Shown: piece after piece, positions 7,098-20,560 of the stretch
How the letters are laid out: the number at the start of each line of letters is the position of its first letter
How positions within the stretch are numbered: the stretch's first letter is position 1
DNA from: Muribaculaceae bacterium
GTDB lineage: Bacteria; Bacteroidota; Bacteroidia; Bacteroidales; Muribaculaceae
Direction: 5' to 3'
Length of the DNA stretch: 64,000 bases
NCBI GenBank assembly: GCA_029058745.1
Contig: JAIDXM010000049.1
Location: 109,069-173,068 of the forward strand
Translations under genes and position numbers: made by a program
The notes under the pieces: model-generated
Databases searched by the model: none
Told to the model about the DNA's origin: nothing
What the model saw: only the letters and a program-made list of their open reading frames with translations

Positions 7098-9083
7098 TTA
7101 CCAAAACTTTTGTTCCCTTTTCTCGAAATCGTATTCGAAAATACGCTCTGAACGTCCCCTTGTATGGTTCTTCAGATAGTAGAGCGTGCCTTGTGGTGTC
7201 TGGAAGTCAACGGAGTCGGCGGTTGCCCTTTTTCGTCCCGCGCTGTTCCACCTGCAGGAGCCGAACCAGAACAGTTCGTATTCGTCGCCTTCCCTGACAT
7301 AGTTGTCGCGGTTGCGCGGCACGAACATCACCTTCCCCACCGATACGGGGTATCCGAGGTCGAGTGCCGCCCATCCCCCCGATTTCTCCTTATAATCGAA
7401 CGAGGTGAAGATGTCGCCGTCGAAGACCTTGCGGTAATCGTGAGCCGTGTCGCCGTCAACCGCACCGGGAGTGCCGAACACCCTTCCTCGCAGTGGTAGG
7501 CTGTCTGAGGTGTCCGCGTAGAGTCCTATCTCCGCGATGTTGCAGTTGCTCCCTTCCGCGCCATAGTAGCGGTAATACCTGTGGGGGCGCGATTGAGCCG
7601 GGAGCGTCACGTAGTTGACCCTTCTTTTTGCCAATCCGCTGATACGGAAGACGGTGTCTCGCACGCTGAAGGATGGTTCGTCCGAACCCTCAATCACACC
7701 GTCTATGCTGCGGTACACGAGTTCGCCATTCCTCTCGTTGAGCGGGAACTTTGAGTAGGCGGTGAGCATTCCTTCCGTGCCTCCGGGGCCAATCTTGCGT
7801 ATCACCCCTCCCTCTTCCACCACGAACGGCAGACATATGGGGGATAGGACGTTGTCTTCCATACGTGCTGCAACGAGCACCACACCTTGGGAGACATTAT
7901 GGAACACGGGACGGCTACTCCCCGTGTGGAATCCCACAGCCACCCATTCGTTGTTGCCCCACGAAGCCAGATACACCGTGCCACCTCCCTCGATGTCAGG
8001 CAGTTCTATGTCATGACTTCCAGAAGGCTTGTAAACCGCTGTCACGTCGGTCAGCTTCGGGATCCTCAAGAACTTCGGTCGCATAGACGTTTCGGAGGGC
8101 AACTCCGTATCCATACTGTCGTTTATTCCAAATTCCTCGCGGTAAATCTTCGCCGCCACGATGTCGAATTCCGGCGCAGGGACGAACGAGGGATTCTCGG
8201 TGCAGGTCACGTAGGTGCGTCCGTCCTTGCCGATTATGAATGGCCATGAGTGACCTGCACTGTTCTCCCCGCGCACAGGCACCATATCGATGCCTGAAGG
8301 TATTCCGGCCGCACGCATCAGATAAACCACTCCATGGGCGAACTCGCGGCATGTCCCCGCCTTGTCGGTGACGTTTGCGTAACCGAGGGCAGGTCCCGAA
8401 GGGAGTTGCCCGGTCCAACGGAATTCCTTGCGGTTCCAATGTTCCATTATGGCCTGGGCGGCTACCAGCGGGTCATCAACACCGGCTGCAACAAGGCTGT
8501 CGATCACTGGGGAAAACGCGAATAATACTGAATCGCGCCAACATGAAAGCTCTTCATCTCCAATGCGATACGGTAATACGTATCTAAAAAAATTATCCTT
8601 CTTAATATCCGCACACCAAGGGAGATTGTCCCGCATTTTAAAGGCAAGATTTATATCATGTAAAAGATACTGAGTTTTCATATGCCGCAAATCCTCATAT
8701 TTGGTAAGTGCCCTCACACTGAAGCCTTCATCCTTAACGAGAGAATCAATACGTGGGATAGCTTCCTTTCCAGTCTTCGAGAATAAATGATAATATCCTT
8801 GATATGATTTAAGCGCGTGTCCCCCCAAGGTATGGTTGCCTGGCATATTACCTATAAGCCATTCGACAGCTTCACTTTTCTCCTTGTCTCCCTCAAAATA
8901 TAAGATAGCTTCAAGCATCTCCGTGTGGTTGTCTCCGGCAATGCGCAGTGCCTTTTCAAGACTGTCGTTGCCGGAACACGAGACGGTTATTTGAATAAGT
9001 GTCAAAACAAAAGAGACGATTGTAATACCTCTAAAATTCATCGCATTAATTCTATGTAGATCATATATTTTTATGGCGTGCAT
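7098..9083 (-). CDS. Transglutaminase-fold (papain-like Cys-His-Asp) lipoprotein with C-terminal discoidin/galactose-binding-like domain (cassette A)
   Basis: 661-aa ORF; an alternative ATG at 9041 gives the lipobox signal MNFRGITIVSFVLTLIQITVSCSG. TGase core GTCREFAHGVVYLMRAAGIP ... AGHSWPFIIGKDG. The C-terminal about 150 aa (NIAEIGLY ... GGWAALDLG ... YELFWF) looks F5/8-type-C-like. Paralog of 16043-17884. Confidence 0.75.
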   Translation of the reverse strand: MHAIKIYDLHRINAMNFRGITIVSFVLTLIQITVSCSGNDSLEKALRIAGDNHTEMLEAILYFEGDKEKSEAVEWLIGNMPGNHTLGGHALKSYQGYYHLFSKTGKEAIPRIDSLVKDEGFSVRALTKYEDLRHMKTQYLLHDINLAFKMRDNLPWCADIKKDNFFRYVLPYRIGDEELSCWRDSVLFAFSPVIDSLVAAGVDDPLVAAQAIMEHWNRKEFRWTGQLPSGPALGYANVTDKAGTCREFAHGVVYLMRAAGIPSGIDMVPVRGENSAGHSWPFIIGKDGRTYVTCTENPSFVPAPEFDIVAAKIYREEFGINDSMDTELPSETSMRPKFLRIPKLTDVTAVYKPSGSHDIELPDIEGGGTVYLASWGNNEWVAVGFHTGSSRPVFHNVSQGVVLVAARMEDNVLSPICLPFVVEEGGVIRKIGPGGTEGMLTAYSKFPLNERNGELVYRSIDGVIEGSDEPSFSVRDTVFRISGLAKRRVNYVTLPAQSRPHRYYRYYGAEGSNCNIAEIGLYADTSDSLPLRGRVFGTPGAVDGDTAHDYRKVFDGDIFTSFDYKEKSGGWAALDLGYPVSVGKVMFVPRNRDNYVREGDEYELFWFGSCRWNSAGRKRATADSVDFQTPQGTLYYLKNHTRGRSERIFEYDFEKREQKFW

Positions 9084-9091
9084 CGCTCTTG

Positions 9092-9910
9092 TTAAGCATC
9101 CACTCCATCAATTACGAGCTGTAACGGGGAATTGACCGAATTTGTCAGAAGTGTAACTACACTTCGGTAGTTGCCTCGCTTCCGTCTGTCATAGGATATG
9201 GTCAGGTACACGGAGTCCCCCGGTTCTATACGGTTGGCTTCAAGATGCGTTCTTGTGCAGCTGCATGTACTTTCTGTCTCGAACACTATACCTGTCTTGT
9301 CGCCATAGTTGTGGATATAGACCGTGGTGTCAATATGTGGCCTTGAGGTTCGTATCATTACCGTGGACAACCTCAGGTCTGTCTGAACCGGGCAAATCCT
9401 TCGGTAAAAACGCCATCTGTCGGATGCGCTTGCGGGTTTGGCACTGTCAATCACGGTTCCTCCGGGGCCTACAAGGTATAACAAGGGGCGGAGGTTCCTT
9501 TTGCCATACAGTTTTGAAACCTTTCCTGTAATGATTTGTCCATCGAGTCCGTATATTCTGACATGACGCCGGCATTCCGTGGAGAGCGGGGCTTCAGTCA
9601 GGAAAAAATAATATTGCGCTTTCCCATATAGGGGGGATTCTTTACCCGCCATTTTATCTATCCACTCCACGATATGTCCGGAAATAAGGTCATCGCAACC
9701 AACGGGAGCGGCGACTATTTTATAGCCCCCGCCCGTCAGTTCGGTACACTTCGAGAGTTCGGACGCATATCCTACGCCGTGAGGATTCTCTCTCCCGGTG
9801 CTCCCACGGGATATGCATGATGACAGAATTATAATGCATACAATGAAAGAGAATACGGTAACAGAATACGTCCTAAGCCCATTGGATTTATATTTCAATG
9901 TTGCGGTCAT
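9092..9910 (-). CDS. DUF1573-type lipoprotein with degenerate thioredoxin-like N-domain lacking CxxC (cassette A)
   Basis: 272-aa ORF with lipobox ILSSCIS. The C-terminal GIVFETESTCSCTRTHLEANRIEPGDSVYLTISYD matches the DUF1573 pattern (SCxC). The middle PLLYLVGPGGTVID resembles a TlpA-like fold, but only a single Cys (STEC) sits where the paralogs have CxxC. Confidence 0.55.
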   Translation of the reverse strand: MTATLKYKSNGLRTYSVTVFSFIVCIIILSSCISRGSTGRENPHGVGYASELSKCTELTGGGYKIVAAPVGCDDLISGHIVEWIDKMAGKESPLYGKAQYYFFLTEAPLSTECRRHVRIYGLDGQIITGKVSKLYGKRNLRPLLYLVGPGGTVIDSAKPASASDRWRFYRRICPVQTDLRLSTVMIRTSRPHIDTTVYIHNYGDKTGIVFETESTCSCTRTHLEANRIEPGDSVYLTISYDRRKRGNYRSVVTLLTNSVNSPLQLVIDGVDA

Positions 9911-9928
9911 GCTTTGGATGATGTGTTG

Positions 9929-11053
9929 TCAATGCTTGAATCGGAATCGGGCGAGCACTATGTTGTCGTCATCATTGTGTGGAATCTCCCGGCCAGTAAT
10001 CCGCGAGAGAGTGGCAATTTCATCCGAAGGAATCTCGCATAGGGCGTAGTCGTTGCACACGAAAACAGGACGGAAACTTAGTCCCTCGCTGAAATTCCGG
10101 AATCTCTCTCCCTGCCTGTCCACTTTATCGTATATGGCCGTATGGTAGGCCCGTTCCCCATCTTTGTCCGACCACATGCATGCCATATAATAGCGCGGGG
10201 TCTGCCAGTTTTGGGAAAAAACATACGGCAACGAGCCGTCTTCAAGGTCTCGTGTTATTTTCTGTGTGATTTCCGGAGATTCCATCCCCTCAATTGATTT
10301 GACATAAGTGTGCCCGTCAATATTATCACCTCCGAAATCCCATGTATATGCAGCCTTGAGGGAGTCTCCCTCCATTTTATAGACAGTCATGTCGATAGGC
10401 GGGGTGAAATATAGCCTGTCCTCATATATGTTGAACGGAGACGATTGCAGGCCGTCTGTTATCCTCTCATGGAACCATGCGTCGAAAACGGACTTGCCGG
10501 CACCCGTGTCAATTACGGAGATGCCCGGTTCATCCTCTTCGACCTGTGACCACAGGGCGAGCCTCTCCCCATCAATCCATTCGCATCCAAAATAGTTCGG
10601 CTTGTCGAGGGTAAGTCTGTTGCGTCCCATGAAACGGTTGTCAAGAGTGTATTCTATGGTTTCACCGAACGGCGAAAGCATCGTCAGGAACCCTTTTTCC
10701 GGATTGAGAGAAATGTCATAAACCATGTTGTATTCCTCCGGCCCCTCGCCTCTCTTCCCAATCCTGGATATGAACTCTCCCTTATCGTTGAACATGAATA
10801 CCAAGTATCTCTTGTATTCATAAAGAATCATTGTATCACCGACGCATATCGCCTTTGAGATTTCCGACATCAGCGACGAGTCGGATGTTTCAAGTGCTAT
10901 TGGTTCTATCCCGCTGAAAAACTTTTTGTAGGAAGGTGCTTTTTTCGCGTAGCTCACTTTCAACACCTCTCCATCTTCTTGGTCAGCCTGCGGATGCCTT
11001 GTGCATCCACAGGCCGCCATCAGCAGGAGTGTGACCGGCATTATCCTCCTCAT
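9929..11053 (-). CDS. 6-bladed beta-propeller-type lipoprotein (BF3164-like family), cassette A
   Basis: The ORF track starts at a TTG (11074). The ATG at 11053 gives MRRIMPVTLLLMAACGC (lipobox). Family-typical GxGPxE motif IGKRGEGPEEY. Starts 5 nt after the peptide gene stop. Confidence 0.7.
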   Translation of the reverse strand: MRRIMPVTLLLMAACGCTRHPQADQEDGEVLKVSYAKKAPSYKKFFSGIEPIALETSDSSLMSEISKAICVGDTMILYEYKRYLVFMFNDKGEFISRIGKRGEGPEEYNMVYDISLNPEKGFLTMLSPFGETIEYTLDNRFMGRNRLTLDKPNYFGCEWIDGERLALWSQVEEDEPGISVIDTGAGKSVFDAWFHERITDGLQSSPFNIYEDRLYFTPPIDMTVYKMEGDSLKAAYTWDFGGDNIDGHTYVKSIEGMESPEITQKITRDLEDGSLPYVFSQNWQTPRYYMACMWSDKDGERAYHTAIYDKVDRQGERFRNFSEGLSFRPVFVCNDYALCEIPSDEIATLSRITGREIPHNDDDNIVLARFRFKH

Positions 11054-11058
11054 GGCAG

Positions 11059-11307
11059 TCACATCCTTATGCAATAATCCTTAAGATATCCTGAGAAGGC
11101 ACAGTCACGTTTTTGAGAATCCCAATCCCAGCAGGTGCCTTCCTTTGCGCCGCAGATCATGATGAACCCCTCTCCGTCGGATAGGGCGTCGATGTTTTCA
11201 AGCTGTGCTTCCGTCAGCTCACTTTCAGCCGACTGCTTGTTGGCGAATACGAAGCCGTTAACGGCAAGGGCCGCTACGGCGAGCCCTCCGAAAATCATTC
11301 TTTTCAT
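11059..11307 (-). CDS. NVEALA-type small Cys-rich precursor peptide A (82 aa)
   Basis: N-terminal hydrophobic segment MKRMIFGGLAVAALAVNGFVFA, leader helix AQLENIDALS, and the tail DGEGFIMICGAKEGTCWDWDSQKRDCAFSGYLKDYCIRM with 4 Cys. Confidence 0.7.
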   Translation of the reverse strand: MKRMIFGGLAVAALAVNGFVFANKQSAESELTEAQLENIDALSDGEGFIMICGAKEGTCWDWDSQKRDCAFSGYLKDYCIRM

Positions 11308-11332
11308 TAGTTTGATTAATTATAATTTATTA

Positions 11333-11562
11333 AAAAAGGGTTATTACTGTACCTGACACCTCGAAATCGATGTCAGGTCTATTCTCAAAATTGATTGTCA
11401 CACGCCGTAGAAAGTTCCCGGCGGTCGTGTCGGAGAACGATACTTTGCGTAGTAGGAGACGATTGTGAAGTCGGCATCCGGCTTCGCAATCATCCCGCCA
11501 TCCACAAGTCTTATGGAGTCCGGGAAGAGGATTTCCTTTCCGGTCCACTCGATGACAGCTTT
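11333..11562 (-). pseudogene. Internally deleted remnant of a thioredoxin-DUF1573 gene
   Basis: 11333-11440 encodes a diverged C-terminus (FLRRVTINFENRPDIDFEVSGTVITLF vs FLRSVMVYFENQTSPTLRFEVTGQVITN of 13081-13968). 11448-11562 matches 13743-13857 with 2 mismatches in about 115 nt. About 200 codons in between are missing. Confidence 0.75.
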
Positions 11563-11747
11563 CCCCACGAAGCCAGATACACCGTGCCGCCTCCCTCGAC
11601 CTCCTTCAACACTATGTCATGGTTTCCCGAAGGCTTGTAAACCGCTGTCACGTCGGTCAGCTTCGGGATCCTCAGAAACCGTGGGCGTATAGACGGGTCG
11701 GTGGGCAACTCCGTATCCATATCATCGTTAAATCCATAACGTCCCAT
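11563..11747 (-). pseudogene. Internal fragment of a transglutaminase-fold gene fused to the Trx remnant
   Basis: 11563-11735 aligns to 7957-8128 of the cassette-A TGase gene (about 27 mismatches in 173 nt by hand). Encodes DTELPTDPSIRPRFLRIPKLTDVTAVYKPSGNHD vs DTELPSETSMRPKFLRIPKLTDVTAVYKPSGSHD. Lacks both the N-terminus and the catalytic core. Confidence 0.75.
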
Positions 11748-11758
11748 AAAATCATAGT

Positions 11759-12700
11759 TTAAAACTGGAATGTATATAATCGGTCGTCGTTTGACGCCAT
11801 GATGACACGTTTGTTCTTTCTGTCATACGTGAACAGATACCCTACCATTCCCGTATCAATACATGACAGGGCATTACCATCATAGTCGAATCTCTTGATT
11901 TTACTGTTTCCTGTCCCCGTTTTGAAGTCAACGTCCTCCTGCGACAGCACAATAAACCCGTCATCAAGGCATACAACGCAAGAATATGCGAATTCATGAC
12001 CGTCAAGTCCACCTCTCAGTACCGTCAGATTTTTCATCGCTTCCTGTCCCAACCCGGCTATCAGTATTACATTGGATTTCAAAAAGGCCGCGACTATATG
12101 TTTGCCATTAGTGGACCAAAATAAGGGTGAGTCCTTTATGTCCGGGGAAATCTCGCTGCAGTCAATCGAATCCCAGGTCTTTTGATTCTCCATGTCGTAT
12201 ATCTTGAAAACATAGCCGTTCTCACCAAGAACAGTATAACCCAAGAGGGACCTGGAAATTTCACCGGCCATATTAATCACATCTGAACCATATTTTAAAG
12301 TGTCTTTCCCTTCGATTATATGGTGGCGCCAACAATCCGCCACCATCATACGATTTGAGAGCGGTACGACAAGTTCGGGTTCGAGATATTCACCCGGACC
12401 TTCCCCCCTCTTGCCCAATTTTTTCGTTTCTTTAAACGAGACCGGATCAAGCACATGGAACGCAAACGAATCAAGGTCGCTTACACAGATTACGCCACTG
12501 TCGGAATATACCAACTCCACTATGTCGAAATCATATTCCTCCTCTACCGGATTCATACGGACAATAGTGTCACTTACAGTCGCTTCCGGCATACTCCTTT
12601 CTGTGATCTTATGCCGATTTTTTGGGGGATGACCGCAGCTTATTGCAAAGGCAAGGAAAAATATTGCAATATATATATAATACAACCTACGTATCTTCAT
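11759..12700 (-). CDS. 6-bladed beta-propeller-type lipoprotein, cassette B
   Basis: 313-aa ORF with lipobox FAISCGH and motif LGKRGEGPGEY. Confidence 0.7.
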   Translation of the reverse strand: MKIRRLYYIYIAIFFLAFAISCGHPPKNRHKITERSMPEATVSDTIVRMNPVEEEYDFDIVELVYSDSGVICVSDLDSFAFHVLDPVSFKETKKLGKRGEGPGEYLEPELVVPLSNRMMVADCWRHHIIEGKDTLKYGSDVINMAGEISRSLLGYTVLGENGYVFKIYDMENQKTWDSIDCSEISPDIKDSPLFWSTNGKHIVAAFLKSNVILIAGLGQEAMKNLTVLRGGLDGHEFAYSCVVCLDDGFIVLSQEDVDFKTGTGNSKIKRFDYDGNALSCIDTGMVGYLFTYDRKNKRVIMASNDDRLYTFQF

Positions 12701-12714
12701 GTGTGCTTATTTTT

Positions 12715-12765
12715 ATTGGCCTGTGTCCAATCAGGTGTACCCACTGAATATTGACACATGCCAAT
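12715..12765 (-). terminator. Imperfect hairpin between peptide B and propeller B (attenuator/terminator candidate)
   Basis: Arms attggcctgtgtc (12715-12727) and gacacatgccaat (12753-12765) pair at 12 of 13 positions with a 25-nt loop. Confidence 0.35.
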
Positions 12766-12782
12766 TATGGATTTAGTTTCAC

Positions 12783-13073
12783 TTACTGTTGTGTACATCC
12801 GACAGGGTTGTATCCTGACTTTTCCTCGTAACAACAGTCACGGAATCTCGCTTTAGGGGTGGGTCCAACGCGGTTGACATCCCACTTTCTGTAACCGGAT
12901 GTATTGTTGCAGGGTCCGTTTAATTCCACTCCTTCCGTGAGAGCTTCGATGGTTTCCAACTGAAGCTTGCTCAAAGATTGGTCTGGCTGATTGGCTTTTG
13001 AACGCGCGAATCCGCCTGCTGCAAGAGCCACTATTGCGAGTCCCGCAAAGAAAAAGTTTTTCGTCTTTTTCAT
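12783..13073 (-). CDS. NVEALA-type small Cys-rich precursor peptide B (96 aa)
   Basis: MKKTKNFFFAGLAIVALAAGGFA, then the leader SKLQLETIEALT, then the tail EGVELNGPCNNTSGYRKWDVNRVGPTPKARFRDCCYEEKSGYNPVGCTQQ with 4 Cys. Confidence 0.7.
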   Translation of the reverse strand: MKKTKNFFFAGLAIVALAAGGFARSKANQPDQSLSKLQLETIEALTEGVELNGPCNNTSGYRKWDVNRVGPTPKARFRDCCYEEKSGYNPVGCTQQ

Positions 13074-13080
13074 GAGTTTA

Positions 13081-13968
13081 TTAATTGGTTATTACTTGTC
13101 CCGTTACTTCAAAACGAAGTGTCGGAGACGTTTGGTTTTCAAAATAGACCATGACGCTTCTTAGGAAGTTGTCAGGTATTGTGTCGCGGAATGAGACCTC
13201 GACCCTGTAAGGACTCCCTGGAGGAATGATTGTCGGGACGACCGTTCCTGCAGTGCACTCGCATGAGGAAATTACTTCCCTAACGCGGAGAGTATCGGAA
13301 CTCTTGTTCTTCAGGGAGAAGATATGGTATACCGATTCTCCAGGCTTTACATTACCGAAGTCATAGCTATATTCTATCCATTCCCCGTCATCTTCAATAT
13401 TGTTCTCTCTTTTTCCGATTAACGAAAGATAAAGATTGAAGGCACCCTTGCTTTGAACAGGATTTCCGAATGTGAGGACATGGTTGTCGCTGTCGAGAAG
13501 GAACGTCTGCATCAGCGGGTCTTCGGGGAATCCATTCAGTGAATTGATTGCATCACTTGAGTCCAATACCACCGGATAATTGAAATGATCACGCTTCCGC
13601 AGATAATCCAGTCCTTTTTCATCGTTCGAAAAAGCTATCATCAACAGGTTCACGGTTTTGTCTCCGCGCACGGAATCTACGCGTTGCATGAACTCGTTCC
13701 AGAATCTCAGCCTCATACGGCATCCCGTGCAACCGACGGAATCGTAGTAGGAGACGATTGTGAAGTCGGCATCCGGCTTCGCAATCATCCCGCCATCGAC
13801 AAGTCTCATGGAGTCCGGGAAGAGGATTTCCTTTCCGGTCCACTCGATGACAGCTTTCTCGTATGCCTTCCTCTTGCTGTCGCCACACGATGCCGTGATG
13901 CATAGAATGAAGATTGAGATGAATATAGGAAGTGTTGTCTTGACAAAATGTGGCAGTGCTGTACCCAT
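13081..13968 (-). CDS. Thioredoxin-like (CxxC) / DUF1573 fusion lipoprotein, cassette B
   Basis: 295-aa ORF with lipobox ITASCGD. TlpA-like region FTIVSYYDSVGCTGCRM ... TFLLDSDNHVLTFGNP. DUF1573 motif YDFGNVKPGESVYHIFSLKNKSSDTLRVREVISSCECT. Ends 7 nt before the start of the peptide B gene. Confidence 0.75.
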   Translation of the reverse strand: MGTALPHFVKTTLPIFISIFILCITASCGDSKRKAYEKAVIEWTGKEILFPDSMRLVDGGMIAKPDADFTIVSYYDSVGCTGCRMRLRFWNEFMQRVDSVRGDKTVNLLMIAFSNDEKGLDYLRKRDHFNYPVVLDSSDAINSLNGFPEDPLMQTFLLDSDNHVLTFGNPVQSKGAFNLYLSLIGKRENNIEDDGEWIEYSYDFGNVKPGESVYHIFSLKNKSSDTLRVREVISSCECTAGTVVPTIIPPGSPYRVEVSFRDTIPDNFLRSVMVYFENQTSPTLRFEVTGQVITN

Positions 13969-13983: not shown

Positions 13984-14352
13984 TCAGATAACACCGGAGT
14001 AATACTCTCCGTCAATTGCGACGATGACCGACACGCTCTCCTCTCCATCGAATGTAAAGCTATATCCGTCGAGAAGGTTTGCCTGTTGCCGCATCACGAT
14101 AACTCCGCTTTTACTGCCAGAGGCGGTTATGACCCCTTCTGTGTCGTAGTCGCAATATACTGTGATTTCATTGCCGGTTACGATACAATAGACGGGCGAC
14201 CAGGCGGGCATCCTGGGGTAGTCATGAGTATTTGTGTTGTCTTTCTTTAGACGAATCTGCTCCGGATTTTTTTGTTCAGCGGAATTGGTTGCCACGGAAC
14301 AAACGAACGCCACCGCGAGCATGAGAATTGTCATGAATTTTCTCATTTGCAT
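13984..14352 (-). CDS. Small secreted protein, DUF3244-like
   Basis: 122-aa ORF with a signal peptide (MTILMLAVAFVCSVA). The C-terminal pattern VSVIVAIDGEYYSGVI resembles the DUF3244 family ending. Similar in kind to 55016-55411. A canonical -7 box lies upstream. Confidence 0.45.
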   Translation of the reverse strand: MQMRKFMTILMLAVAFVCSVATNSAEQKNPEQIRLKKDNTNTHDYPRMPAWSPVYCIVTGNEITVYCDYDTEGVITASGSKSGVIVMRQQANLLDGYSFTFDGEESVSVIVAIDGEYYSGVI

Positions 14353-14388: not shown

Positions 14389-14488
14389 TTGATTATTAGA
14401 AGAAAATGCAAGCTTTCCCGATATTAAATTTTCTTTCTGAAGAATTTTTTTAATGTGAGTTAAATATTGATTATTAATGAAATAAAGA

Positions 14489-14518: not shown

Positions 14519-14623
14519 CCTTTCACCCTCTTTCCTCTCAAGGTATGTGATGAAATAGTGGTTGCGGGGTGGCGGATTCACCCTCCGGAGGGGAGCGTTC
14601 CCCACGGTTTAAGAATGCTGTGG

Positions 14624-15649
14624 TCAGTCGTCGAGCTGTATATATCCGAACTGAGGTTCACCGTCGGTGTGTATGAACAGACGGTTCGTGCCATGGTGAT
14701 ATGTCATGTCGTTCACTCTGGCCTCCAAATGTAATGTCTTTATGTATTTCCCGTCAAGATCCATCACAAAGATATCCTTGCCATACACAGAGTTGTCATT
14801 TCTTATATCAGAGCCGTTATAGCTTACGTACAGCCGGGCGCCTGCTATCACAGGGCTACTGAAATAATAGGAGACTCCATCATGTTTTTCTTTATAATCA
14901 GATCCGTAGATAGTCTTCTTGAGATTTCCGTCGGTATCAAAAATCTTGATTCGGTCGTGGGTGTATCCGGTGGATACGATAATATTCTGATTGATGTCAA
15001 CCGCAATCTGGCACTTCCCGACATCTCCGGAAGAAACGGTGTCAATAAAGGTTGCTGCACCTGAATCCGGATTGAAACGACCGAGACGGGATGAAAAACC
15101 GGATTCTCCCGGTCCATAGAGAGAACATAATACGGTGGTGTCGTTGACGTAATGGGGCGCGACGAAAAGAGTCATATAGTCACTATTGTCAAGCCTCACC
15201 TTATCGAATGCCTTGCATGTTGAGTCAGAGAGAGCCTTCTCCATATTTATTCCCTGCAATGTCATGCGTCCCGTGTTCAGTGCAAATATATTCCCACCTC
15301 GGTCGGCATATAATCCGCCGAGATATGACATCTCCCCGGGTCCGGTGCCGAATTTGCCGAATGAGCCGACATATCTTTCTGAGGCGATGTCATAGGCGGC
15401 GAACAGACGGTCGCGCTGTTGTCCGTCATAGATTATCAGCGTGTCTCCGGATATTATGAGATTGGAATTTGAATGCATCGGAGGTAGGGTGGAATCAATA
15501 GATATAAGTTGTACTGATTCCACGTTATCACGCTTTCCGGCAGTTTCCTCTATAGGATGGCCTGTAGAGGCGCGGCATGACCATAGCACAGGACACATAA
15601 TTAAGGAAATGACCGAAATTCCACACGTTCTGACTATATTTACTTGCAT
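14624..15649 (-). CDS. 6-bladed beta-propeller-type lipoprotein, cassette C
   Basis: 341-aa ORF with signal/lipobox CPVLWSCRA and motif FGKFGTGPGEM. The start overlaps the end of the peptide C gene by 10 nt. Confidence 0.7.
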   Translation of the reverse strand: MQVNIVRTCGISVISLIMCPVLWSCRASTGHPIEETAGKRDNVESVQLISIDSTLPPMHSNSNLIISGDTLIIYDGQQRDRLFAAYDIASERYVGSFGKFGTGPGEMSYLGGLYADRGGNIFALNTGRMTLQGINMEKALSDSTCKAFDKVRLDNSDYMTLFVAPHYVNDTTVLCSLYGPGESGFSSRLGRFNPDSGAATFIDTVSSGDVGKCQIAVDINQNIIVSTGYTHDRIKIFDTDGNLKKTIYGSDYKEKHDGVSYYFSSPVIAGARLYVSYNGSDIRNDNSVYGKDIFVMDLDGKYIKTLHLEARVNDMTYHHGTNRLFIHTDGEPQFGYIQLDD

Positions 15650-15885
15650 GGTACAGGTGTGGAATTTGGGATGGCCGCAGAACTACTTAACAGACAATAA
15701 TCATCGCCGGATGCGAGGCAACATTGGTCATACTCAGACTCAATCCACCATTCCTTGTCGGTTAGGGCGTCCAGGTTTTCGAGTTGCGAAGGAGAGAGTT
15801 CCGTGTGCGACTCCATCTTGGCTGTTGTGAAGCCTGCCGTTGCGAGGACTGCGATTCCGATGCCGAAAAAAATACGTTTCTTCAT
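15640..15885 (-). CDS. NVEALA-type small Cys-rich precursor peptide C (81 aa)
   Basis: MKKRIFFGIGIAVLATAGFTTA, then the leader SQLENLDALT, then the tail DKEWWIESEYDQCCLASGDDYCLLSSSAAIPNSTPVPCK with 4 Cys. Confidence 0.7.
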   Translation of the reverse strand: MKKRIFFGIGIAVLATAGFTTAKMESHTELSPSQLENLDALTDKEWWIESEYDQCCLASGDDYCLLSSSAAIPNSTPVPCK

Positions 15886-16042
15886 GTCAAATAAAATTTT
15901 ATGGTTATTATTAGAGTTGGTTTATTTCTCCTTAAATCTCGAAACGGGATTCCGGAAGGTTGTTTTCGAATTAGAAAGGCTTTGCGCGTAAAATCGCATT
16001 ACACAATCTCAAACCATTTGCAGTTCCCATGGAATAGTGGAA

Positions 16043-17884
16043 TCACCACCATATCTGCCTGCCATTTTTAAGTGTGAATGGACGCTCCTCTTTCCCTTTT
16101 GTAAGGTCATGAAGCAGAAGCAAAGCTCCCTCCGGGATGTTGTCATATATCAGTTCATATCCATCGCTGAGTTGTCTGCCGAGTGATCGCCATTTCTCTC
16201 CGTCCCACCATGTCAGTTCGTATTCGTCTCCGGGTTCAATGAAGTTGCCGTCATGCCGAGGATAGTAGTCTATCCGCGAAATCTCCACAAGTCTGCCGAA
16301 ATCAAGATTTCGCTTACCCGTTGATTCTATGACTTTGCCGTCAGGCCCGTATGCCGCAAGACTGTCGATGTAATGTCGTGCGGGATGGTCTGTCTCTGCC
16401 CATAGGCATCGGTAACGTCCGGACTGTTTAATGTATGCGGTGTTATGGAATATGGGCACATCAGTGATTGTGTATAGAGTCACCGGATTACGGAACCCTG
16501 AATCGGTTGCCGCCATAATTCTTGTGCCGGGCATCTGTGCATAGCCGTTTAGTTTTCCTGGGCTTATAGGATATTTCCGCGTCAGTGTGGCTGAGACTTT
16601 TCTTGAAGTGTCGGCGGTAATCTCTATCTTCATACCACGGCTGATGTAAAACGGATTTCCGACAGCTTCCGGCCTACCGTCTCTCAACGTCATAGGTAGA
16701 AGCATAACGGAGTCTCCTATGTTAGTGAAAATGGCTTTTCCATTGTCGGTCGAGGCATAAGCCTGGGCAATCCATCCGGAAGAGAGGGAGTGTGTGCAGA
16801 GCCACACGTATTCTACCTCATTCCCGGCATCGACCGTAACTTCCCCGGTCAGCCCGTATTCTGCCGAAACATCAATACTTCTATGATGGTTAATCCATGC
16901 AGAATTCCCGAAATGTGGCGCGTCTTTTGCAGGATTTACGTGGAAGGTGGAACGCCACACCTTGACGACCCTCTTGCGGAAATCGCCGTCGTAGGGATAA
17001 CCCTCCGGCATCGGTTGCTTGAGCACGTATCCGCTCGCGTCAATCTTATTGTGCTTCCTTGCCACAGAGTCATCGTCAACGATAGTGTAAGTGCCACCGG
17101 GCAACACAAGCGACACCCATGAATGGACGTTGTCGCTGTAGTTGGCCCATCGCCCGCAGTTGTCGTATGCTACAGGCAGTCCCATGGCGCGGCATACCCC
17201 CGCGAGATAGATGCAGCGTTCCTTGCATATAGTGGAGAAATAGTTGCGGTAAGCCACCACATCCATAAGGTGCGGATATTTCAGGGCTTTTGTCTTCTTC
17301 TGTGAGAATATCTCACTGTGGATTATCTCGAATGCCCTGCGCGGGTCTTTAATCCCCTTTAGCAATGGATGGAACTTTACTTTAATAGAGTCACGCCAAC
17401 CGGAGCGCAGAGGTTCATCGGCAATCCTGTATGGAAGGATATGACATAGGAAGCTGTCGAAGTCCACGCTGTCTCGCCATGGACTCTCTCTCCATGTCCT
17501 GAATGCACCGTCGATATTGTCGATGAGCAATCCGGAGGACATGGATGAGAGGTCGGTACGCCTTTCCGGTCTGGGTATATTCTGGGATATTGCCATCCAC
17601 AGGGAGTCTGCCTCCGCCTTTGTCATGGCCTTTGCGGCAATGGAATCGGAGAAAGTGCGGACAGCTTCGCCATAGACAGCGTAATGACCGGGCATGTTGA
17701 CAATGAGCCATTCCGCCGCCTGTAGTTTCTCCGGCTCGCTCGAATAATGTTCCAGAACCTTTTCCAGTTCAGCACGGTTTTCTCCTGCATGGTCAAGCGT
17801 CGCCGTGAGATTTCCGTTGCGCGAACAGGAAATAAGACTCATGACTGCAATGAAGATTAGAAATATTCTATGCCAAGTCTCCAT
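16043..17884 (-). CDS. Transglutaminase-fold lipoprotein with C-terminal discoidin-like domain (cassette D)
   Basis: 613-aa ORF with lipobox MSLISCS. Core KERCIYLAGVCRAMGLP ... NVHSWVSL ... DDD. The C-terminus GDEYELTWWDGEKW parallels GDEYELFWFGSCRW of 7098-9083. Confidence 0.75.
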   Translation of the reverse strand: METWHRIFLIFIAVMSLISCSRNGNLTATLDHAGENRAELEKVLEHYSSEPEKLQAAEWLIVNMPGHYAVYGEAVRTFSDSIAAKAMTKAEADSLWMAISQNIPRPERRTDLSSMSSGLLIDNIDGAFRTWRESPWRDSVDFDSFLCHILPYRIADEPLRSGWRDSIKVKFHPLLKGIKDPRRAFEIIHSEIFSQKKTKALKYPHLMDVVAYRNYFSTICKERCIYLAGVCRAMGLPVAYDNCGRWANYSDNVHSWVSLVLPGGTYTIVDDDSVARKHNKIDASGYVLKQPMPEGYPYDGDFRKRVVKVWRSTFHVNPAKDAPHFGNSAWINHHRSIDVSAEYGLTGEVTVDAGNEVEYVWLCTHSLSSGWIAQAYASTDNGKAIFTNIGDSVMLLPMTLRDGRPEAVGNPFYISRGMKIEITADTSRKVSATLTRKYPISPGKLNGYAQMPGTRIMAATDSGFRNPVTLYTITDVPIFHNTAYIKQSGRYRCLWAETDHPARHYIDSLAAYGPDGKVIESTGKRNLDFGRLVEISRIDYYPRHDGNFIEPGDEYELTWWDGEKWRSLGRQLSDGYELIYDNIPEGALLLLHDLTKGKEERPFTLKNGRQIWW

Positions 17885-17910
17885 GAAAAATCAGGTTTAA
17901 TTATGCCGGT

Positions 17911-17949
17911 TCAGTCGTCGAGCTGTATGTAGCCGAACTGAGGTTCGCC
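17911..17949 (-). pseudogene. Orphan 3' end (last 12 codons plus stop) of a cassette-C-type propeller gene
   Basis: 17911-17949 matches 14624-14662 with 3 mismatches in 39 nt (encodes GEPQFGYIQLDD-stop). Sits between propeller D and TGase D. Confidence 0.6.
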
Positions 17950-17977
17950 AAGATATGTCAAACTAATTGTGTAAAGT

Positions 17978-19066
17978 TTAGTATTGCATTTTGATAGGTA
18001 CCGAAATCATGATTGAGCGTTTCTCGTCAGACTCCTTTCCGAAAGCTATGATTTTGCCAGTATCTGTAATTGTTGCGGGTGGATAAATATCCTTATCCGG
18101 CATCAATGTGCGTTCAAGCGTTCCTTTCTTGTCATAGATTTCAAAATAGAGCCGATTGTAATCTTCGGATTTTTTATATCTGCGGGCGGCTATTATCTTG
18201 TCCTTGTATTTAAAAGCACTCCATACACCACCTCCGAATCCTTCCTTGATTCTTGTGGTGGCGGACCGTGTTGCCGTTTCGTCATTGTAATCATATTGAT
18301 AAGGAGCAATCATCCTTTCGTCAACAAGAGAATATGTCTCGCCATTTCGTTCATATACACTAATCACATATGAGCTGAACACGACAAGGCTTTCATCGTC
18401 ATTCATAACAATTGAATTTGTCTGATGGAAATTCCCGAGTATTCCGATTGAAAGATCTTTCTCCTTCTCCCATAGTCTTGGGAATGTTCCGAAGCGATTT
18501 TTGATATTTCCGACACTGTCAAGCAATATAAAACGATACTCCTGGTCATTTTTTTCCATAGAACCAAATGGCATAACAGAAACAACATATTCTCCATTAG
18601 GCATTGCAAAGACATTTGAACTCTCTCCGGGGAGCATAAAAAGCTTTTGAGATTTACTCCCGTCCAGTTTTTCGGAAAATAATGTCATAAGAGGGCGTGA
18701 GTAAATCAGGATACTGTCCGGTTTTAGATAAAAACTGATTGGACGTATCATTTCTCCCGGTCCGTTCCCTACCGCTACCATGTTTTTTAGAGTCTTTCCG
18801 TCTTCAAGCCTTAGCACTTTTATTATACTGTCGCCATAATGATCGGCTACATATATATACTTATCCATACATTGCATTTCTGCCGGGTATCCTATACTTT
18901 CATTGGCAACAAGCTCCTGAAATATAATTTGTTCCGGAGAGTCTTGTTGAGAGGCGTTGTTTCTATTGCAAGATAGAGTTGTCAAACAGCTTGCTATGAC
19001 GGCTAATACGGCAATCCTTATTTCTATTTTTTCCTTTTTCATAAAATATAGGTTTGTATAAAGCAT
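17978..19066 (-). CDS. 6-bladed beta-propeller-type lipoprotein, cassette D
   Basis: 362-aa ORF; the alternative ATG at 19042 gives MKKEKIEIRIAVLAVIASCLTTLSCN (lipobox). Motif VAVGNGPGEM. Confidence 0.7.
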   Translation of the reverse strand: MLYTNLYFMKKEKIEIRIAVLAVIASCLTTLSCNRNNASQQDSPEQIIFQELVANESIGYPAEMQCMDKYIYVADHYGDSIIKVLRLEDGKTLKNMVAVGNGPGEMIRPISFYLKPDSILIYSRPLMTLFSEKLDGSKSQKLFMLPGESSNVFAMPNGEYVVSVMPFGSMEKNDQEYRFILLDSVGNIKNRFGTFPRLWEKEKDLSIGILGNFHQTNSIVMNDDESLVVFSSYVISVYERNGETYSLVDERMIAPYQYDYNDETATRSATTRIKEGFGGGVWSAFKYKDKIIAARRYKKSEDYNRLYFEIYDKKGTLERTLMPDKDIYPPATITDTGKIIAFGKESDEKRSIMISVPIKMQY

Positions 19067-19082
19067 ATGTTAATTATGTGTT

Positions 19083-19090
19083 CAAAATTA
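19083..19090 (-). promoter_or_regulatory. Candidate internal -7 box TAATTTTG ahead of propeller D
   Basis: caaaatta on + equals TAATTTTG on -, 17 nt upstream of the ATG at 19066 and 41 nt upstream of the ATG at 19042. Confidence 0.4.
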
Positions 19091-19275
19091 GTTAATGCAT
19101 AGCTTCATAAAATCTGAGGCGAACTTTCAAATCCGGATTCAGTTACAATGTCCCCCCTTTGCGCCATCATCCGAATCCAAAGTTTAATCCGCATATTTCA
19201 TAATCTATACGATACTTAATTTAGCATACATACTTATGAAATTATCTTCATAGTTCAAAGGTTATTAGTAAATCA

Positions 19276-19306
19276 GTCTTGAAGTACGGATACCGTACTT
19301 CAAGAC
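19276..19306 (-). terminator. Perfect 14-bp hairpin downstream of peptide D (terminator/attenuator)
   Basis: gtcttgaagtacgg - ata - ccgtacttcaagac, a perfect 14-bp stem starting 33 nt after the peptide stop. No U-tract follows. Confidence 0.6.
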
Positions 19307-19338
19307 AACTTCCATACATAAATTGTGGAGAGGGATCT

Positions 19339-19578
19339 TCAGTGTTTGGGCATATAAAAGATATGAATGGTATTGCCCTGAGATATCCTGTGGCACTCCG
19401 TTTCTGCCGGTAGTGGGCATTCTGTAACAGGAGCATTTTCCTGGTCTGTAAGAGCCTCAATTGTTTCGAGTTGTAAGGCAGAAAGCTGTGTCTGATTGGC
19501 GTTGGAATACGCGAATCCTCCTGTCGCGAGTGCTATTATCGCAAGCCCCACGTAGAAAAAGTTTTTCGTCATTTTCAT
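19339..19578 (-). CDS. NVEALA-type small precursor peptide D (79 aa)
   Basis: MKMTKNFFYVGLAIIALATGGFA, then the leader SALQLETIEALT, then the tail DQENAPVTECPLPAETECHRISQGNTIHIFYMPKH with 2 Cys. Confidence 0.65.
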   Translation of the reverse strand: MKMTKNFFYVGLAIIALATGGFAYSNANQTQLSALQLETIEALTDQENAPVTECPLPAETECHRISQGNTIHIFYMPKH

Positions 19579-19589
19579 GATTTTATTGA

Positions 19590-20489
19590 TTAATTGGTTG
19601 TTACTTGTCCCGTTACTTCAAAACGAAGTAGCGGAGACGTTTGGTTTTCAAAATAGACCATGACGCTTCTTAGGAAGGAGTCAGGTATTGTTTCGCGGAA
19701 TGAGACCTCGACTCTGTAAGGACTCCCTGGAGGAATGATTGTCGGGATGACAGTTCCTTCAGTGCATTCGCATGAGGAAATTACTTCCCTAACGCGGAGA
19801 GTATCGGAACTCTCGTTTTTCATGGAGAAGGTATGGGATACCGATTCTCCAGACTTTACATTACCGAAGTCATAGCTATATTCTATCCATTCCCTGTCAT
19901 TTTCAATATTGTTCTCACTTTTTCCGATTATAGAAAGATAGAGATTGAATAATCTTTTATTTTGAATTGGATTACCGAATGTTAAAACCTTATTGTTTTT
20001 ATCAATAAGAAATGTTCGCATAGAGTCATCAACTGGAAATAAATTCAAGGAATTAATATGGTCTTTAGGGTCGTATATTATATTGTATTTGAAATCATCA
20101 TATTTTTGAATCCGTTCCAAATCTTTTTCAAATACAGAAGCTGCAATCATCATGAGATTTACGGTTTTGTCACCGCGCACGGAATCTACGCGCTGCATGA
20201 ACTCGTTCCAGAATTGAAGCTTCATGCGGCATTCAGAGCACCCGATGGAATCGTAGTATGATACGATTGTAAAGTCAGCTTCCGGTTTAGTGATTATTTC
20301 ACCTCCTACAAGTCTCATGGAGTCCGGGAATAGGATTCTCTTCCCCGTCCACTCTACGACGGCTTTCTCGTATGCCTTTCTCTTGCTGTCTCCACACGAT
20401 GCGACCGTCAGAAGGCCAAATGCCGTTAGGACATACGGTAGAATGCGCCTGATGGAAGAGGCTGCGTTTTTTCCGATATTAGTATTCAT
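19590..20489 (-). CDS. Thioredoxin-like (CxxC) / DUF1573 fusion lipoprotein, cassette D
   Basis: The ORF track starts at 20555, which overlaps the -7 box. The ATG at 20489 gives MNTNIGKNAASSIRRILPYVLTAFGLLTVASCGD, a proper lipoprotein signal. CxxC is GCSEC. DUF1573 motif YDFGNVKSGESVSHTFSMKNESSDTLRVREVISSCECT. Confidence 0.75.
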   Translation of the reverse strand: MNTNIGKNAASSIRRILPYVLTAFGLLTVASCGDSKRKAYEKAVVEWTGKRILFPDSMRLVGGEIITKPEADFTIVSYYDSIGCSECRMKLQFWNEFMQRVDSVRGDKTVNLMMIAASVFEKDLERIQKYDDFKYNIIYDPKDHINSLNLFPVDDSMRTFLIDKNNKVLTFGNPIQNKRLFNLYLSIIGKSENNIENDREWIEYSYDFGNVKSGESVSHTFSMKNESSDTLRVREVISSCECTEGTVIPTIIPPGSPYRVEVSFRETIPDSFLRSVMVYFENQTSPLLRFEVTGQVTTN

Positions 20490-20552
20490 AAACCGGAAAT
20501 TGCGATGGCATGTCTTTAGGTATATTTTCATGGTGACAAGGTTATCGTTTTG

Positions 20553-20560
20553 CAAATATA
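20553..20560 (-). promoter_or_regulatory. Candidate -7 box TATATTTG heading the array
   Basis: caaatata on + equals TATATTTG on -. Sits just downstream (on the - strand) of the SGNH-gene terminator. Confidence 0.45.

Follow-up and report, generated by a model that had tools for sequence, protein, structure and literature searches.

The stretch analysed here, referred to as the window, is 64,000 nucleotides of contig JAIDXM010000049.1 from a Muribaculaceae bacterium. Positions 7098 to 20560 of the window carry an array of genes for small cysteine-rich peptides of the NVEALA type and for three kinds of lipoprotein: beta-propellers, proteins that combine a thioredoxin (Trx) domain with a DUF1573 domain, and proteins with a transglutaminase (TGase) fold. 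All features described below are on the - strand unless stated otherwise. An earlier note, made from the letters alone, had listed 14 open reading frames (ORFs) of these types in the interval as four repeats of one cassette. An ORF check of the window places all 14 where they had been listed, on the - strand. Apart from orf122 (13984-14352), the interval holds nothing further, and no unrelated gene lies between.

The array is composed of four peptide and propeller pairs (A to D), two intact Trx-DUF1573 genes, one gene for a DUF1573 protein with a degenerate Trx domain, two TGase-fold genes, and one scar. The four-fold pattern holds for the peptide and propeller pairs and not for the two Trx-DUF1573 and two TGase-fold genes. 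The array is therefore irregular and is not a strict four-fold repeat.

Genes of the array

Each peptide begins with a basic N-terminus and a hydrophobic stretch of about 17 residues that ends in small residues (GFA, VFA, TTA). This is followed by a conserved amphipathic helix with the pattern L-(S/T)-x-x-Q-L-E-(N/T)-(I/L)-(D/E)-A-L-(S/T) and by a tail of 30 to 50 residues. The tails are hypervariable and fall into many unrelated families, each of which is kept among orthologues. The hydrophobic segment, the helix, and the unrelated Cys-rich tails are as the earlier note had described them, and because the tail families are conserved among orthologues, the small ORFs can be regarded as real genes under selection.

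The four peptides differ in length and in tail type. pep_A (11059-11307) has 82 amino acids and a four-Cys tail with the framework C..C..GxCW..C.F.G..YC, which is kept in L015, L025, and L020/21 (loci collected from other genomes are designated L and a number). pep_B (12783-13073) has 96 amino acids and a four-Cys tail. pep_C (15640-15885) has 81 amino acids and a four-Cys tail, overlaps the start of its propeller gene by 10 nucleotides, and has the orthologues P0006, P0008, P0011, and P0012. pep_D (19339-19578) has 79 amino acids and a two-Cys tail, with orthologues P0007, P0009, P0010, and one in L023. In 15 of 16 tail families the tail cysteines come to an even number (2, 4, or 6; binomial p ~3e-4), the parity seen in all-disulfide extracytoplasmic domains.

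E values for the Pfam family NVEALA (PF14055) are 2e-4 for pep_A, 5e-3 for pep_B, 0.014 for pep_C, and 4e-5 for pep_D. The four window peptides score 23.6, 21.4, 17.0, and 15.5 bits, below the gathering score of 27, and a peptide from a Muribaculaceae relative (L005:9950-10186) lies above it at 27.3 bits. When the related peptides of the other loci and the window are taken together, 20 of 26 match NVEALA at E<=0.01, the best at 9e-12. The peptides thus appear to form a divergent NVEALA subfamily. Only 16 peptide relatives and 8 homologues of the cassette A propeller were found by a word-indexed search, low numbers that are attributed to fast divergence; a scan of genome contigs with the peptide alignment gave 4 loci.

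The four propeller genes each follow a peptide gene. prop_A (9929-11053), the partner of pep_A, encodes a six-bladed NHL/DUF5128 lipoprotein (DUF5128, E 4e-35, 122 bits) with profile matches in the PDB to 4raa (7e-9) and to TRIM NHL repeats. prop_C (14624-15649), the partner of pep_C, encodes a TolB-like six-bladed lipoprotein (TolB_like, 9.6e-13, 48.5 bits). prop_D (17978-19066), the partner of pep_D, encodes a TolB-like/DUF5128 lipoprotein (TolB_like, 7.5e-12, 45.6 bits; DUF5128, 1e-7). prop_B (11759-12700), the partner of pep_B, is a probable propeller lipoprotein. Its TolB_like match is below threshold (0.017, 14.9 bits against a cut-off of 29.2), it has a KRGEGPGEY motif, and it sits in the same cassette position as the other propellers. 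An alignment of prop_B with the propellers by hhalign reaches 99.7%, a value that is partly circular since the propeller alignment includes prop_B itself.

Among 27 cassette propellers, Pfam matches were to DUF5128 (17), TolB_like (11), and DUF4221 (2). In an alignment of the 27, the conserved residues are limited to the lipobox Cys, a Gly in the GPGE motif, and a single Tyr. This near-absence of conserved residues favours a binder over a common enzyme.

Trx_D (19590-20531, with a likely start at 20531 or 20489) is a lipoprotein with a Trx domain (CSEC) and a DUF1573 domain (CEC; DUF1573, 2.6e-17). Trx_B (13081-13968) is a lipoprotein with a TlpA/ResA-like Trx domain (CTGC) and a DUF1573 immunoglobulin (Ig) domain (CEC; DUF1573, 2.6e-16; StoA_CxxC, 1e-4). 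DUF_A (9092-9910) is a DUF1573 Ig-like lipoprotein (3e-11) that has a CxC motif (C-S-C) and a degenerate N-terminal domain without CxxC; a homologue occupies the same position in L015. From the weakest to the strongest, the matches of the three proteins to PF07610 (DUF1573) score 43.6, 59.9, and 63.1 bits against a cut-off of 26.1. In NCBIfam, the only matches of the array proteins are a weak one to the StoA CxxC model and the DUF1573-related OS_HP2 seleno-domain.

Residues invariant in 25 Trx-DUF1573 homologues are C98-x-x-C101, G186-N-P188 (a putative cis-Pro), and C254 and C256 of the DUF1573 domain. An AlphaFold2 model of Trx_D has a predicted local distance difference test (pLDDT) score of 80.6. 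Top Foldseek matches of its N-terminal domain are ResA/DsbE/StoA-type and Bacteroides thiol-disulfide oxidoreductases together with peroxiredoxin-type Trx folds; they include 4nmu, 3gl3, 4grf, and 1su9 (ResA), with target-normalised template modelling (TM) scores of 0.69-0.76 and E ~1e-7. The C-terminal domain matches a PapD-like domain of HYDIN. The fold, the CxxC, the cis-Pro loop, and the lipobox are those of an extracytoplasmic TlpA/ResA/DsbE-like Trx protein. DUF1573 includes selenoprotein members with U-G-C at the CxC motif (PMC9312934), and such members mark the CxC motif as redox-active. Trx-DUF1573 therefore carries two thiol-redox centres.

TG_A (7098-9083) is a 661-amino-acid lipoprotein composed of an N-terminal helical domain, a transglutaminase/papain-like core, beta-sandwich domains, and a domain like those of discoidin and carbohydrate-binding module family 62 (CBM62). 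Its Transglut_core match (8e-7, 29.7 bits) is above the cut-off of 23, and its C-terminal part is homologous to a galactose-binding CBM62 (2yb7, profile E 3e-22). TG_D (16043-17884) is a 613-amino-acid TGase-fold lipoprotein of a divergent subfamily in which the discoidin region is shortened. It falls below the same cut-off (0.038, 14.7 bits), is 24.5% identical to TG_A over 664 amino acids (E 4e-41), keeps the Cys and the His, and is represented by orthologues in L012 and L014. Across 52 diverse sequences of the family, neither Cys245 nor His278 varies; D287 is variable and D346 invariant.

An AlphaFold2 model of the TGase-fold protein has a pLDDT of 92.1 and a predicted TM score of 0.88. Its core matches animal transglutaminases (TG2 and factor XIII, E 2e-4) and a TGase-like putative cysteine protease of Cytophaga (3isr) in Foldseek; no full-length structural relative was found in the global fold search. 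This protein family is large: a search finds 3453 library representatives at E<=1e-3, and 780 clusters remain at E<=1e-30. Among the 150 best members listed, most have a length of about 650 amino acids. The family is present in Tannerellaceae, Proteiniphilum, and other Bacteroidales, where it is annotated only as hypothetical, transglutaminase-like, or discoidin.

The family assignments made in the earlier note hold by Pfam for DUF1573, three of the propellers, and TG_A, and are weaker for prop_B, TG_D, and NVEALA, which remains below its gathering score. Its reading of the large partners as lipoproteins agrees with signals seen on inspection and with an invariant or near-invariant lipobox Cys in the family alignments. 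With the signal-like N-termini of the small ORFs and the even cysteine counts of the tails, this supports its view of the products as extracytoplasmic and disulfide-rich.

The scar (11330-11747) consists of pieces from the middle of a TGase gene, from the N-terminal end of a Trx, and from the C-terminal end of a DUF1573 protein; its translations match TG_A and Trx_B. The TGase and Trx fragments noted there earlier are real gene remnants.

Pairing, recurrence and regulation of the gene set

In cassettes B and D, the Trx-DUF1573 proteins are 73% identical. The two cassettes also share a DNA block of about 350 bp (13056-13401 and 19561-19910) with 88-98% identity. It runs from the last part of the DUF1573 domain across the intergenic spacer into the beginning of the peptide gene, and identity is much lower on either side. 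Past the block, identity is 74% and then about 55% through the leader (the conserved N-terminal part of the peptide), and 32-44%, the background level, in the tail. Such a pattern suggests that gene conversion or recombination took place recently and that its boundary lies in the leader.

Elsewhere the paralogues of the array are highly divergent. The two TGase-fold proteins share only the identity given above, the propellers are barely alignable, and the peptides are alike only over the first ~45 residues. The paralogues appear to be ancient, except for the Trx/leader block of cassettes B and D, which appears recently homogenised. An origin by recent tandem duplication is ruled out by the age of the paralogues (that block excepted), and an origin from a mobile element or phage by the housekeeping flanks and the conserved site.

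The identities of leader, tail, and propeller were compared in 21 peptide and propeller pairs. Within one genome, leaders are 75-90% identical, tails 14-32%, and propellers 23-25% (window B against D, two pairs in L019, and L020/L021). Across genomes, the tail type tracks the propeller type despite divergence of the leader; window cassette A and L015 are 39% identical in the leader, 51% in the tail, and 41% in the propeller. Tail and propeller identity remain correlated after control for the leader (partial Mantel r=0.33, p=2e-4), a covariation that is partly confounded by the common ancestry of whole cassettes. The within-genome contrast and the DNA mosaic of B and D point the same way as this covariation. 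By these comparisons, the leader goes with the conserved common machinery, and the tail with its own propeller.

The order of the genes shows the same pairing. Orthologues of prop_A always come after A-type peptides (L007, L009, L015, L038), and orthologues of prop_C come after C-type peptides (L003, L012). A propeller gene was detected by the local family search within 400 bp 3' of most non-redundant peptides with enough downstream sequence. Most of the remaining peptides precede a propeller-family gene detected only by Pfam (for example, TolB_like in L016 and DUF4221 in L020). Orphan propellers without a peptide are present in five loci (L015, L016, L018, L020, L029). The earlier suggestion that the propeller acts as binder, scaffold, or immunity protein gains direct support as far as a peptide-specific partner is concerned, since tails co-vary with propellers and leaders do not.

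Related loci were collected with four anchors (peptide, Trx-DUF1573, propeller, and TGase-fold protein) and annotated by local profile searches and Pfam. The order regulator, DUF3244-like protein, Trx-DUF1573, peptide, propeller(s), TGase-fold protein is found in ~17 independent loci, and a second peptide and propeller pair often precedes the TGase-fold gene. The unit is present in Muribaculaceae, "Porphyromonadaceae", Bacteroides sp., Tannerellaceae, and other Bacteroidales. A peptide gene follows Trx within a few bases in ~17 of the 20 Trx-anchored places with downstream sequence. The proposal that the gene types form one co-occurring unit therefore stands, as the unit recurs in many Bacteroidales loci, far above chance.

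The site of the array lies just after acpP-fabF and a GDSL lipase gene. The same site holds a single cassette in several other Muribaculaceae-type contigs, against four in the window, and is a strain-variable hotspot. In one strain (L007), the peptides, propellers, and regulator are 96-99% identical to those of the window, and cassettes A and B are in the opposite order. L007:1-7069, compared with window positions 7098-13968, has an intact 649-amino-acid TGase gene after prop_B and different gene fragments. The reordering in L007 and the single-cassette relatives indicate that cassettes come, go, and change order through recombination between the parts they have in common. The L007 contig breaks inside the array, probably due to repeats.

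Several related loci contain accessory genes. An S26 signal peptidase and a Wzy_C/tetratricopeptide repeat (TPR) membrane protein are encoded beside the set in L005, L020, L043, and L045, and Wzy_C alone in L016. Resistance-nodulation-division (RND) or HlyD efflux genes are beside the set in L005, L018, L042, and L045. The regions concerned are L005:11615-19698, L020:11606-13626, L043:4042-5557 and 12817-13698, L045:11773-19632, L016:13581-15176, L018:1-4407, and L042:1042-9937. The S26, Wzy_C (O-antigen-ligase-like)/TPR, and RND/HlyD/outer-membrane protein (OMP) genes are candidates for signal or leader cleavage, glycosylation, and outer-membrane export, respectively. No S26, Wzy_C/TPR, or RND/HlyD/OMP efflux gene adjoins the array in the window.

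L045:4138-9561 encodes a small protein, a propeller, and a CxxC protein twice over, followed by a TGase fold, S26, and RND. The small proteins are Cys-rich and secreted and have no NVEALA helix, and the CxxC proteins (195 and 199 amino acids) are membrane-anchored. This layout indicates that the class of system is wider than the NVEALA family. In Bacteroides thetaiotaomicron, BT0662 (annotated as belonging to the O-antigen ligase family) and BT0664 ("6-bladed beta-propeller") are two genes apart, and expression changes reported for BT0662-BT0664 were not significant (PMC10434189). The two annotations suggest a related locus in a genetically tractable species.

A gene for a predicted one-component transmembrane regulator (REG, 5185-6906) accompanies the array. 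The product (573 amino acids) carries a lipoprotein signal (LSISC) and contains an extracytoplasmic TPR domain, a single transmembrane helix, and a coiled coil; its C-terminal region resembles a sigma-70 region 4/LuxR-like helix-turn-helix (HTH). The TPR domain is robust by profile comparison with the PDB, where its matches include RapH, RapJ, and NprR. The HTH is weak; sigma-70 region 4 is matched by 3 of 11 family members (best 0.0011) and GerE by 2, and the best PDB matches of the C-terminus are to region 4 of extracytoplasmic function sigma factors at E 0.05-0.2. Homologues of REG flank cassettes in at least 14 loci (L004, L007, L013/14, L015, L016, L018, L022, L023, L024, L029, L031, L033/34, L036, L041). 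They are upstream in most loci and downstream in the closest relatives of the window.

orf122 (13984-14352) encodes a small secreted beta-rich protein that is DUF3244-like. It has no Pfam match itself; its homologues lie directly upstream of Trx in L002, L004, L013/14, and L022, and its positional counterparts match DUF3244 in L018 (a precomputed annotation) and, weakly, in L016. The regulator, orf122, the discoidin/CBM62-like domain, the hotspot, and the shuffling of cassettes had been overlooked in the earlier note, as had the genes for the S26 peptidase, the Wzy_C/TPR protein, and the RND pump found with the set elsewhere.

The full Bacteroidetes promoter consensus (TTTG-N19-TAnnTTTG) occurs before Trx_D (20553-20583), at the start of the array; the window has nine such sites, against 0.79 expected. 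The -7 motif TAnnTTTG alone is found before prop_D (19090-19083), orf122 (14388-14381), and REG (7038-7031). Predicted transcription starts lie near 20546, 19076, 14374, and 7024. A scan for sigma-70-type promoters and for terminators was uninformative (38 against 27.7 expected and 17 against 14.5 expected). A hairpin with a perfect 14-bp stem (19276-19306) begins 32 nucleotides past the pep_D stop and has a folding energy of -24.9 kcal/mol (z -6.1); none of 200 shuffled sequences reached an equally stable fold. It is a candidate attenuator or 3' stabiliser. A stem-loop within 12701-12782, after pep_B, has a value of -22.3 kcal/mol (z -2.8). A hairpin behind a precursor gene is a common arrangement.

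A second member of the regulator family was observed in the window at 53109-57443 (+), in a low-GC (~37%) patch. It has 551 amino acids, with a lipoprotein signal, TPR, transmembrane, and HTH-like regions, and it precedes a full Bacteroidetes promoter (54956-54987) and genes for a 131-amino-acid secreted protein, a 349-amino-acid lipoprotein, and a 213-amino-acid OMP beta-barrel. The 131-amino-acid protein is DUF3244-like by eye, without a Pfam match, and the lipoprotein was assigned to no family. The pair of regulator and small secreted protein looks like a generic module for different envelope cargo.

The scanned remainder of the window contains housekeeping genes and glycoside hydrolases. 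None of the ORFs scanned across the window, which leave out a few larger ORFs outside the array, encodes a radical SAM, Lan, YcaO, or ABC/C39 protein, in agreement with the absence of known ribosomally synthesised and post-translationally modified peptide (RiPP) or bacteriocin enzymes reported before. No exporter or lysis gene was found among them either. The array proteins have no match to bacteriocin families in Pfam or NCBIfam, and their domain content in these databases gives no pointer to anti-phage defence (no PADLOC scan was made).

Three other genes of the window are recorded here. A 493-amino-acid lipoprotein (57568-59049) contains the sequence KYGTHFISRASAGL, which resembles the MACPF signature (Y/W-G-T/S-H-F/Y-x6-G-G), and its gene adjoins that of a small OMP beta-barrel. 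The arrangement recalls Bacteroidales toxins of the BSAP type, whose genes adjoin a resistant copy of their OMP target. The lipoprotein has no Pfam or PDB sequence match, and the MACPF assignment is a lead at the level of the motif. A 346-amino-acid protein with an N-terminal DUF4369 domain (28105-29145) and a WYL/WCX-domain protein (29264-30205) are encoded a few kb from the array; no link between them and the array was found.

Function of the array

The reading that we prefer, though tentatively and as somewhat short of an even chance, is that the array is an uncharacterised Bacteroidales cell-envelope system built round exported, disulfide-rich NVEALA peptides, in which peptide and propeller form toxin and immunity-like pairs for competition between relatives. 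The precursor would be exported by Sec and its signal peptide removed; some related loci encode their own S26 peptidase. The conserved helix would act as a periplasmic leader and as a common docking element for the shared proteins. Trx-DUF1573 might set, correct, or shuffle the disulfides of the tail, and the TGase-fold Cys-His enzyme might cut or transamidate near the junction of helix and tail. The cognate propeller lipoprotein would bind the mature tail and retain or neutralise the product in the producer. The TPR regulator would sense a periplasmic product and control transcription. Release could occur by vesicles, or by RND-type pumps in genomes with such pumps adjacent. Antagonism is favoured because of the hotspot, the shuffling, the scars, the orphan propellers, and the extreme divergence of the propellers.

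Several points weigh against this reading. The activity, cleavage, and binding that it assigns to the proteins are what we infer, and the covariation that underlies the pairing has the confounding by ancestry described above. The window tails have net charges of -2, +1, -5, and -3 by residue count (neutral to acidic), and such mostly anionic tails would differ from typical membrane-active bacteriocins. One tail family (L013:9915-10178 and L031:10811-11065) has five conserved cysteines, which could indicate a free thiol, an intermolecular disulfide, or another cross-link. The hydrophobic N-terminus could be an uncleaved membrane anchor, and no outer-membrane export route was found in the window.

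The shared proteins add further points of this kind. The Trx class to which the model assigns Trx_D usually reduces or isomerises and does not oxidise; the role of oxidative folding catalyst proposed earlier is therefore not established, as the characterised TlpA/ResA/DsbE/StoA cases are reductants or isomerases. Removal of the leader or cross-linking by the TGase fold, also proposed earlier, is likewise not established and rests only on the invariant Cys and His. There is no clear candidate for a third catalytic residue (D287 is variable, and the invariant D346 has no assigned role). The discoidin/CBM-like domain points to a role related to glycans, for which the model has no use. The TGase-fold loci L042 and L045, from Proteiniphilum and another Bacteroidales metagenome-assembled genome, have no NVEALA peptides nearby, which shows that the TGase family also occurs apart from NVEALA.

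Signalling is unlikely in our estimate and still a serious rival, given that a TPR sensor-regulator belongs to the unit and that the tails lack cationic character. In that case the processed peptides (or the freed leader helix) would be autoinducer-like signals, the propeller a receptor or co-receptor, and the TPR-transmembrane-HTH protein the relay, with the cassettes as pherotypes. The regulator in the conserved unit has an extracytoplasmic TPR domain with Rap/NprR-type sensors among its PDB matches, the tails are small, anionic, and not toxin-like, the window is without an exporter or lysis gene, and covariation of peptide and propeller equally fits ligand-receptor pairs. However, the regulator stays conserved in relatives (97% and 76% identity) in which tails and propellers have been exchanged, and it therefore cannot read the variable tail directly. 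Four unrelated signals into one regulator would also be unusual, and signalling has no evident need for a TGase-fold enzyme with a glycan-binding domain. The regulator family adjoins the unrelated lipoprotein/OMP locus at 53109-57443 as well, which suggests a generic envelope regulator.

Less probable still are anchored envelope complexes. The NVEALA protein would be held in the inner membrane by an uncleaved helix as a heterodimer with its propeller, and Trx-DUF1573 and the TGase-fold protein would be assembly factors. The array would then be, with the same low probability, a paralogous family of ligand-binding or protective envelope modules. The ~17-residue hydrophobic stretch is borderline between signal peptide and anchor, an outer-membrane export route is missing from the window, and the pairing is 1:1, with the genes of pep_A/prop_A and pep_C/prop_C nearly abutting or overlapping. 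A lipobox-like Cys in some homologues would hold those on the membrane. Against such complexes, the small residues at -3 and -1 (GFA, VFA, TTA) fit signal peptidase I, and S26 peptidase genes are embedded in five related loci. Released peptides typically have this build of leader and hypervariable tail, with stem-loops behind their genes; RND or HlyD pumps are adjacent in four related loci.

Three peptide homologues were observed in which a lipobox-like Cys ends the hydrophobic segment (AAGGC or VVTC; L016:9895-10143, L025:1274-1513, L023:5460-5690), where the window peptides have GGFA. Some members of the peptide family may be lipid-anchored.

Six-bladed NHL-type propellers include enzymes such as peptidyl-hydroxyglycine lyase. 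That the propeller is a tail-specific modifying enzyme (for example, an NHL-type lyase or cyclase) in a true extracytoplasmic RiPP pathway, with the TGase-fold/discoidin protein in a separate glycan or cell-wall function, is very improbable: the strict and covarying assignment of one propeller to each peptide and the chemistry beyond disulfides hinted at by the five-Cys tails speak for it, but the three residues kept by the 27 propellers argue against a common catalytic site, orphan propellers occur without peptides, and known RiPP enzymes read a conserved leader and stay conserved, the reverse of what is found here.

A broader proposal, which we hold as rather doubtful, is that the system represents a previously unrecognised, wholly extracytoplasmic route to bioactive peptides in Gram-negative bacteria. 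A Sec precursor would carry a second, helical "periplasmic leader", and this helix would recruit a machine of lipoproteins: the TlpA-like/CxC oxidoreductase and the TGase-fold Cys-His processing enzyme with its lectin-like domain, joined in some genomes by an S26 peptidase, a Wzy_C/TPR putative glycosylase, and an RND pump. Each product would have its own propeller as immunity protein or receptor. If true, it would be the first peptide maturation pathway made entirely of periplasmic lipoproteins and a new class of peptide weapon or signal widespread in gut Bacteroidales. It would also serve as a natural library in which every small disulfide-rich peptide is matched to a binding protein.

In the mammalian gut, where Bacteroidales are dominant, competition among their strains shapes the make-up of the community. 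Few of their antagonism systems are understood, namely the type VI secretion system (T6SS), BSAPs, bacteroidetocins, and BcpT. The acpP-fabF hotspot could mark strain identity and competition in Muribaculaceae. NVEALA, DUF5128/TolB-like, DUF1573, and TGase-fold/discoidin proteins are common "hypothetical" annotations, and one modular system would give hundreds of orphan genes a testable function.

Comparison with known systems

No published description of this gene set was found in the literature searched, and NVEALA is mentioned in no paper there. A study of RiPP mining in Bacteroidales makes no mention of propellers, transglutaminase, thioredoxin, or lipoproteins (PMC10352776). The peptides have the conserved leader and variable core of RiPP precursors, and the identity block of cassettes B and D ends within the leader. 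No enzyme family that defines a RiPP class was found among the window ORFs scanned. Disulfide formation alone is not enough for a RiPP strictly defined.

The spacing of the helix (L-S-x-x-Q-L-x-x-I-x-A-L) resembles the double-glycine leader consensus, LSxxELxxIxGG, but A-L replaces G-G, and the resemblance is treated as a lead only. The NVEALA helix may be derived from double-glycine leaders. With a helix that ends in A-L and no C39/ABC gene among the scanned ORFs of the window, the peptides are not double-glycine bacteriocins. Bacteroidetocins, class IIa-like peptide toxins of Bacteroidetes, leave the cell through a C39-ABC transporter; their leader is short, of the double-glycine type, and lacks a Sec signal. 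Like the array peptides, they are small ribosomal Bacteroidales peptides with a leader and disulfides and are strain-variable; they are used against relatives, as the array peptides may be (PMC6671954, PMC8546649). Unlike them, the array has a Sec-type signal with an "EAL(S/T)" helix, no ABC/C39 gene, lipoprotein partners, and anionic tails.

Glycocins such as sublancin (sunA-sunT-bdbA-sunS-bdbB) have a leader and a tail with nested disulfides and encode thiol-disulfide oxidoreductases within the cluster. They are Gram-positive products whose GG leader is cut by a C39-ABC exporter and whose glycosyltransferase is cytoplasmic. The partners in the array are all extracytoplasmic lipoproteins, and a possible glycosylation gene (Wzy_C/TPR) is present only in some related loci and not in the window.

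The TGase-fold proteins can be set beside the LapG-type bacterial transglutaminase-like cysteine proteinases, periplasmic proteases of TGase/papain-like fold that cut an exported protein at a short conserved motif. These are a precedent for the proposed cleavage of the leader. No sequence match between the two was found, and the TGase-fold proteins are three times larger, with discoidin/CBM62-like and beta-sandwich domains. NHLRC2-type proteins combine a Trx-like CxxC domain, a six-bladed NHL propeller, and a beta-stranded domain in one chain. The array has the same three folds, the beta domain being Ig-like, over two adjacent genes, a possible resemblance; NHLRC2 is absent from the top 50 fold matches of the Trx_D model.

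In Rap-Phr and other RNPP systems of Firmicutes, pro-peptides leave by Sec and undergo processing outside the cell, as is predicted here; each genome has several divergent cassettes, and a TPR protein takes part in the circuit. Their receptors are cytoplasmic, and each has its own peptide. Here a single conserved membrane regulator carries the TPR domain, outside the cytoplasm, and a propeller lipoprotein is the partner that varies.

Polymorphic toxin-immunity arrays include the orphan cdiA-CT/cdiI modules of contact-dependent inhibition (CDI), Rhs, and the acquired immunity islands of Bacteroides; their toxins are large enzymes delivered by the type V secretion system (T5SS), the T6SS, or Rhs. 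As in such cassettes, a variable module here lies directly before a co-varying cognate gene, and orphan cognate genes are present. Both kinds of array have a conserved N-terminal part and a hypervariable C-terminal part split at a conserved motif, with a fast-evolving cognate gene next to it. Both also form tandem arrays, come with orphan immunity-like genes and recombination scars, and differ in content between strains while the locus stays fixed. They differ in that the variable parts here are Cys-rich tails of 30-50 amino acids, with predicted Sec export and common redox and TGase-fold partners. The logic of the array resembles that of leader-guided bacteriocins, polymorphic arrays, and Rap-Phr, yet it departs from each of them in the features by which they are defined.

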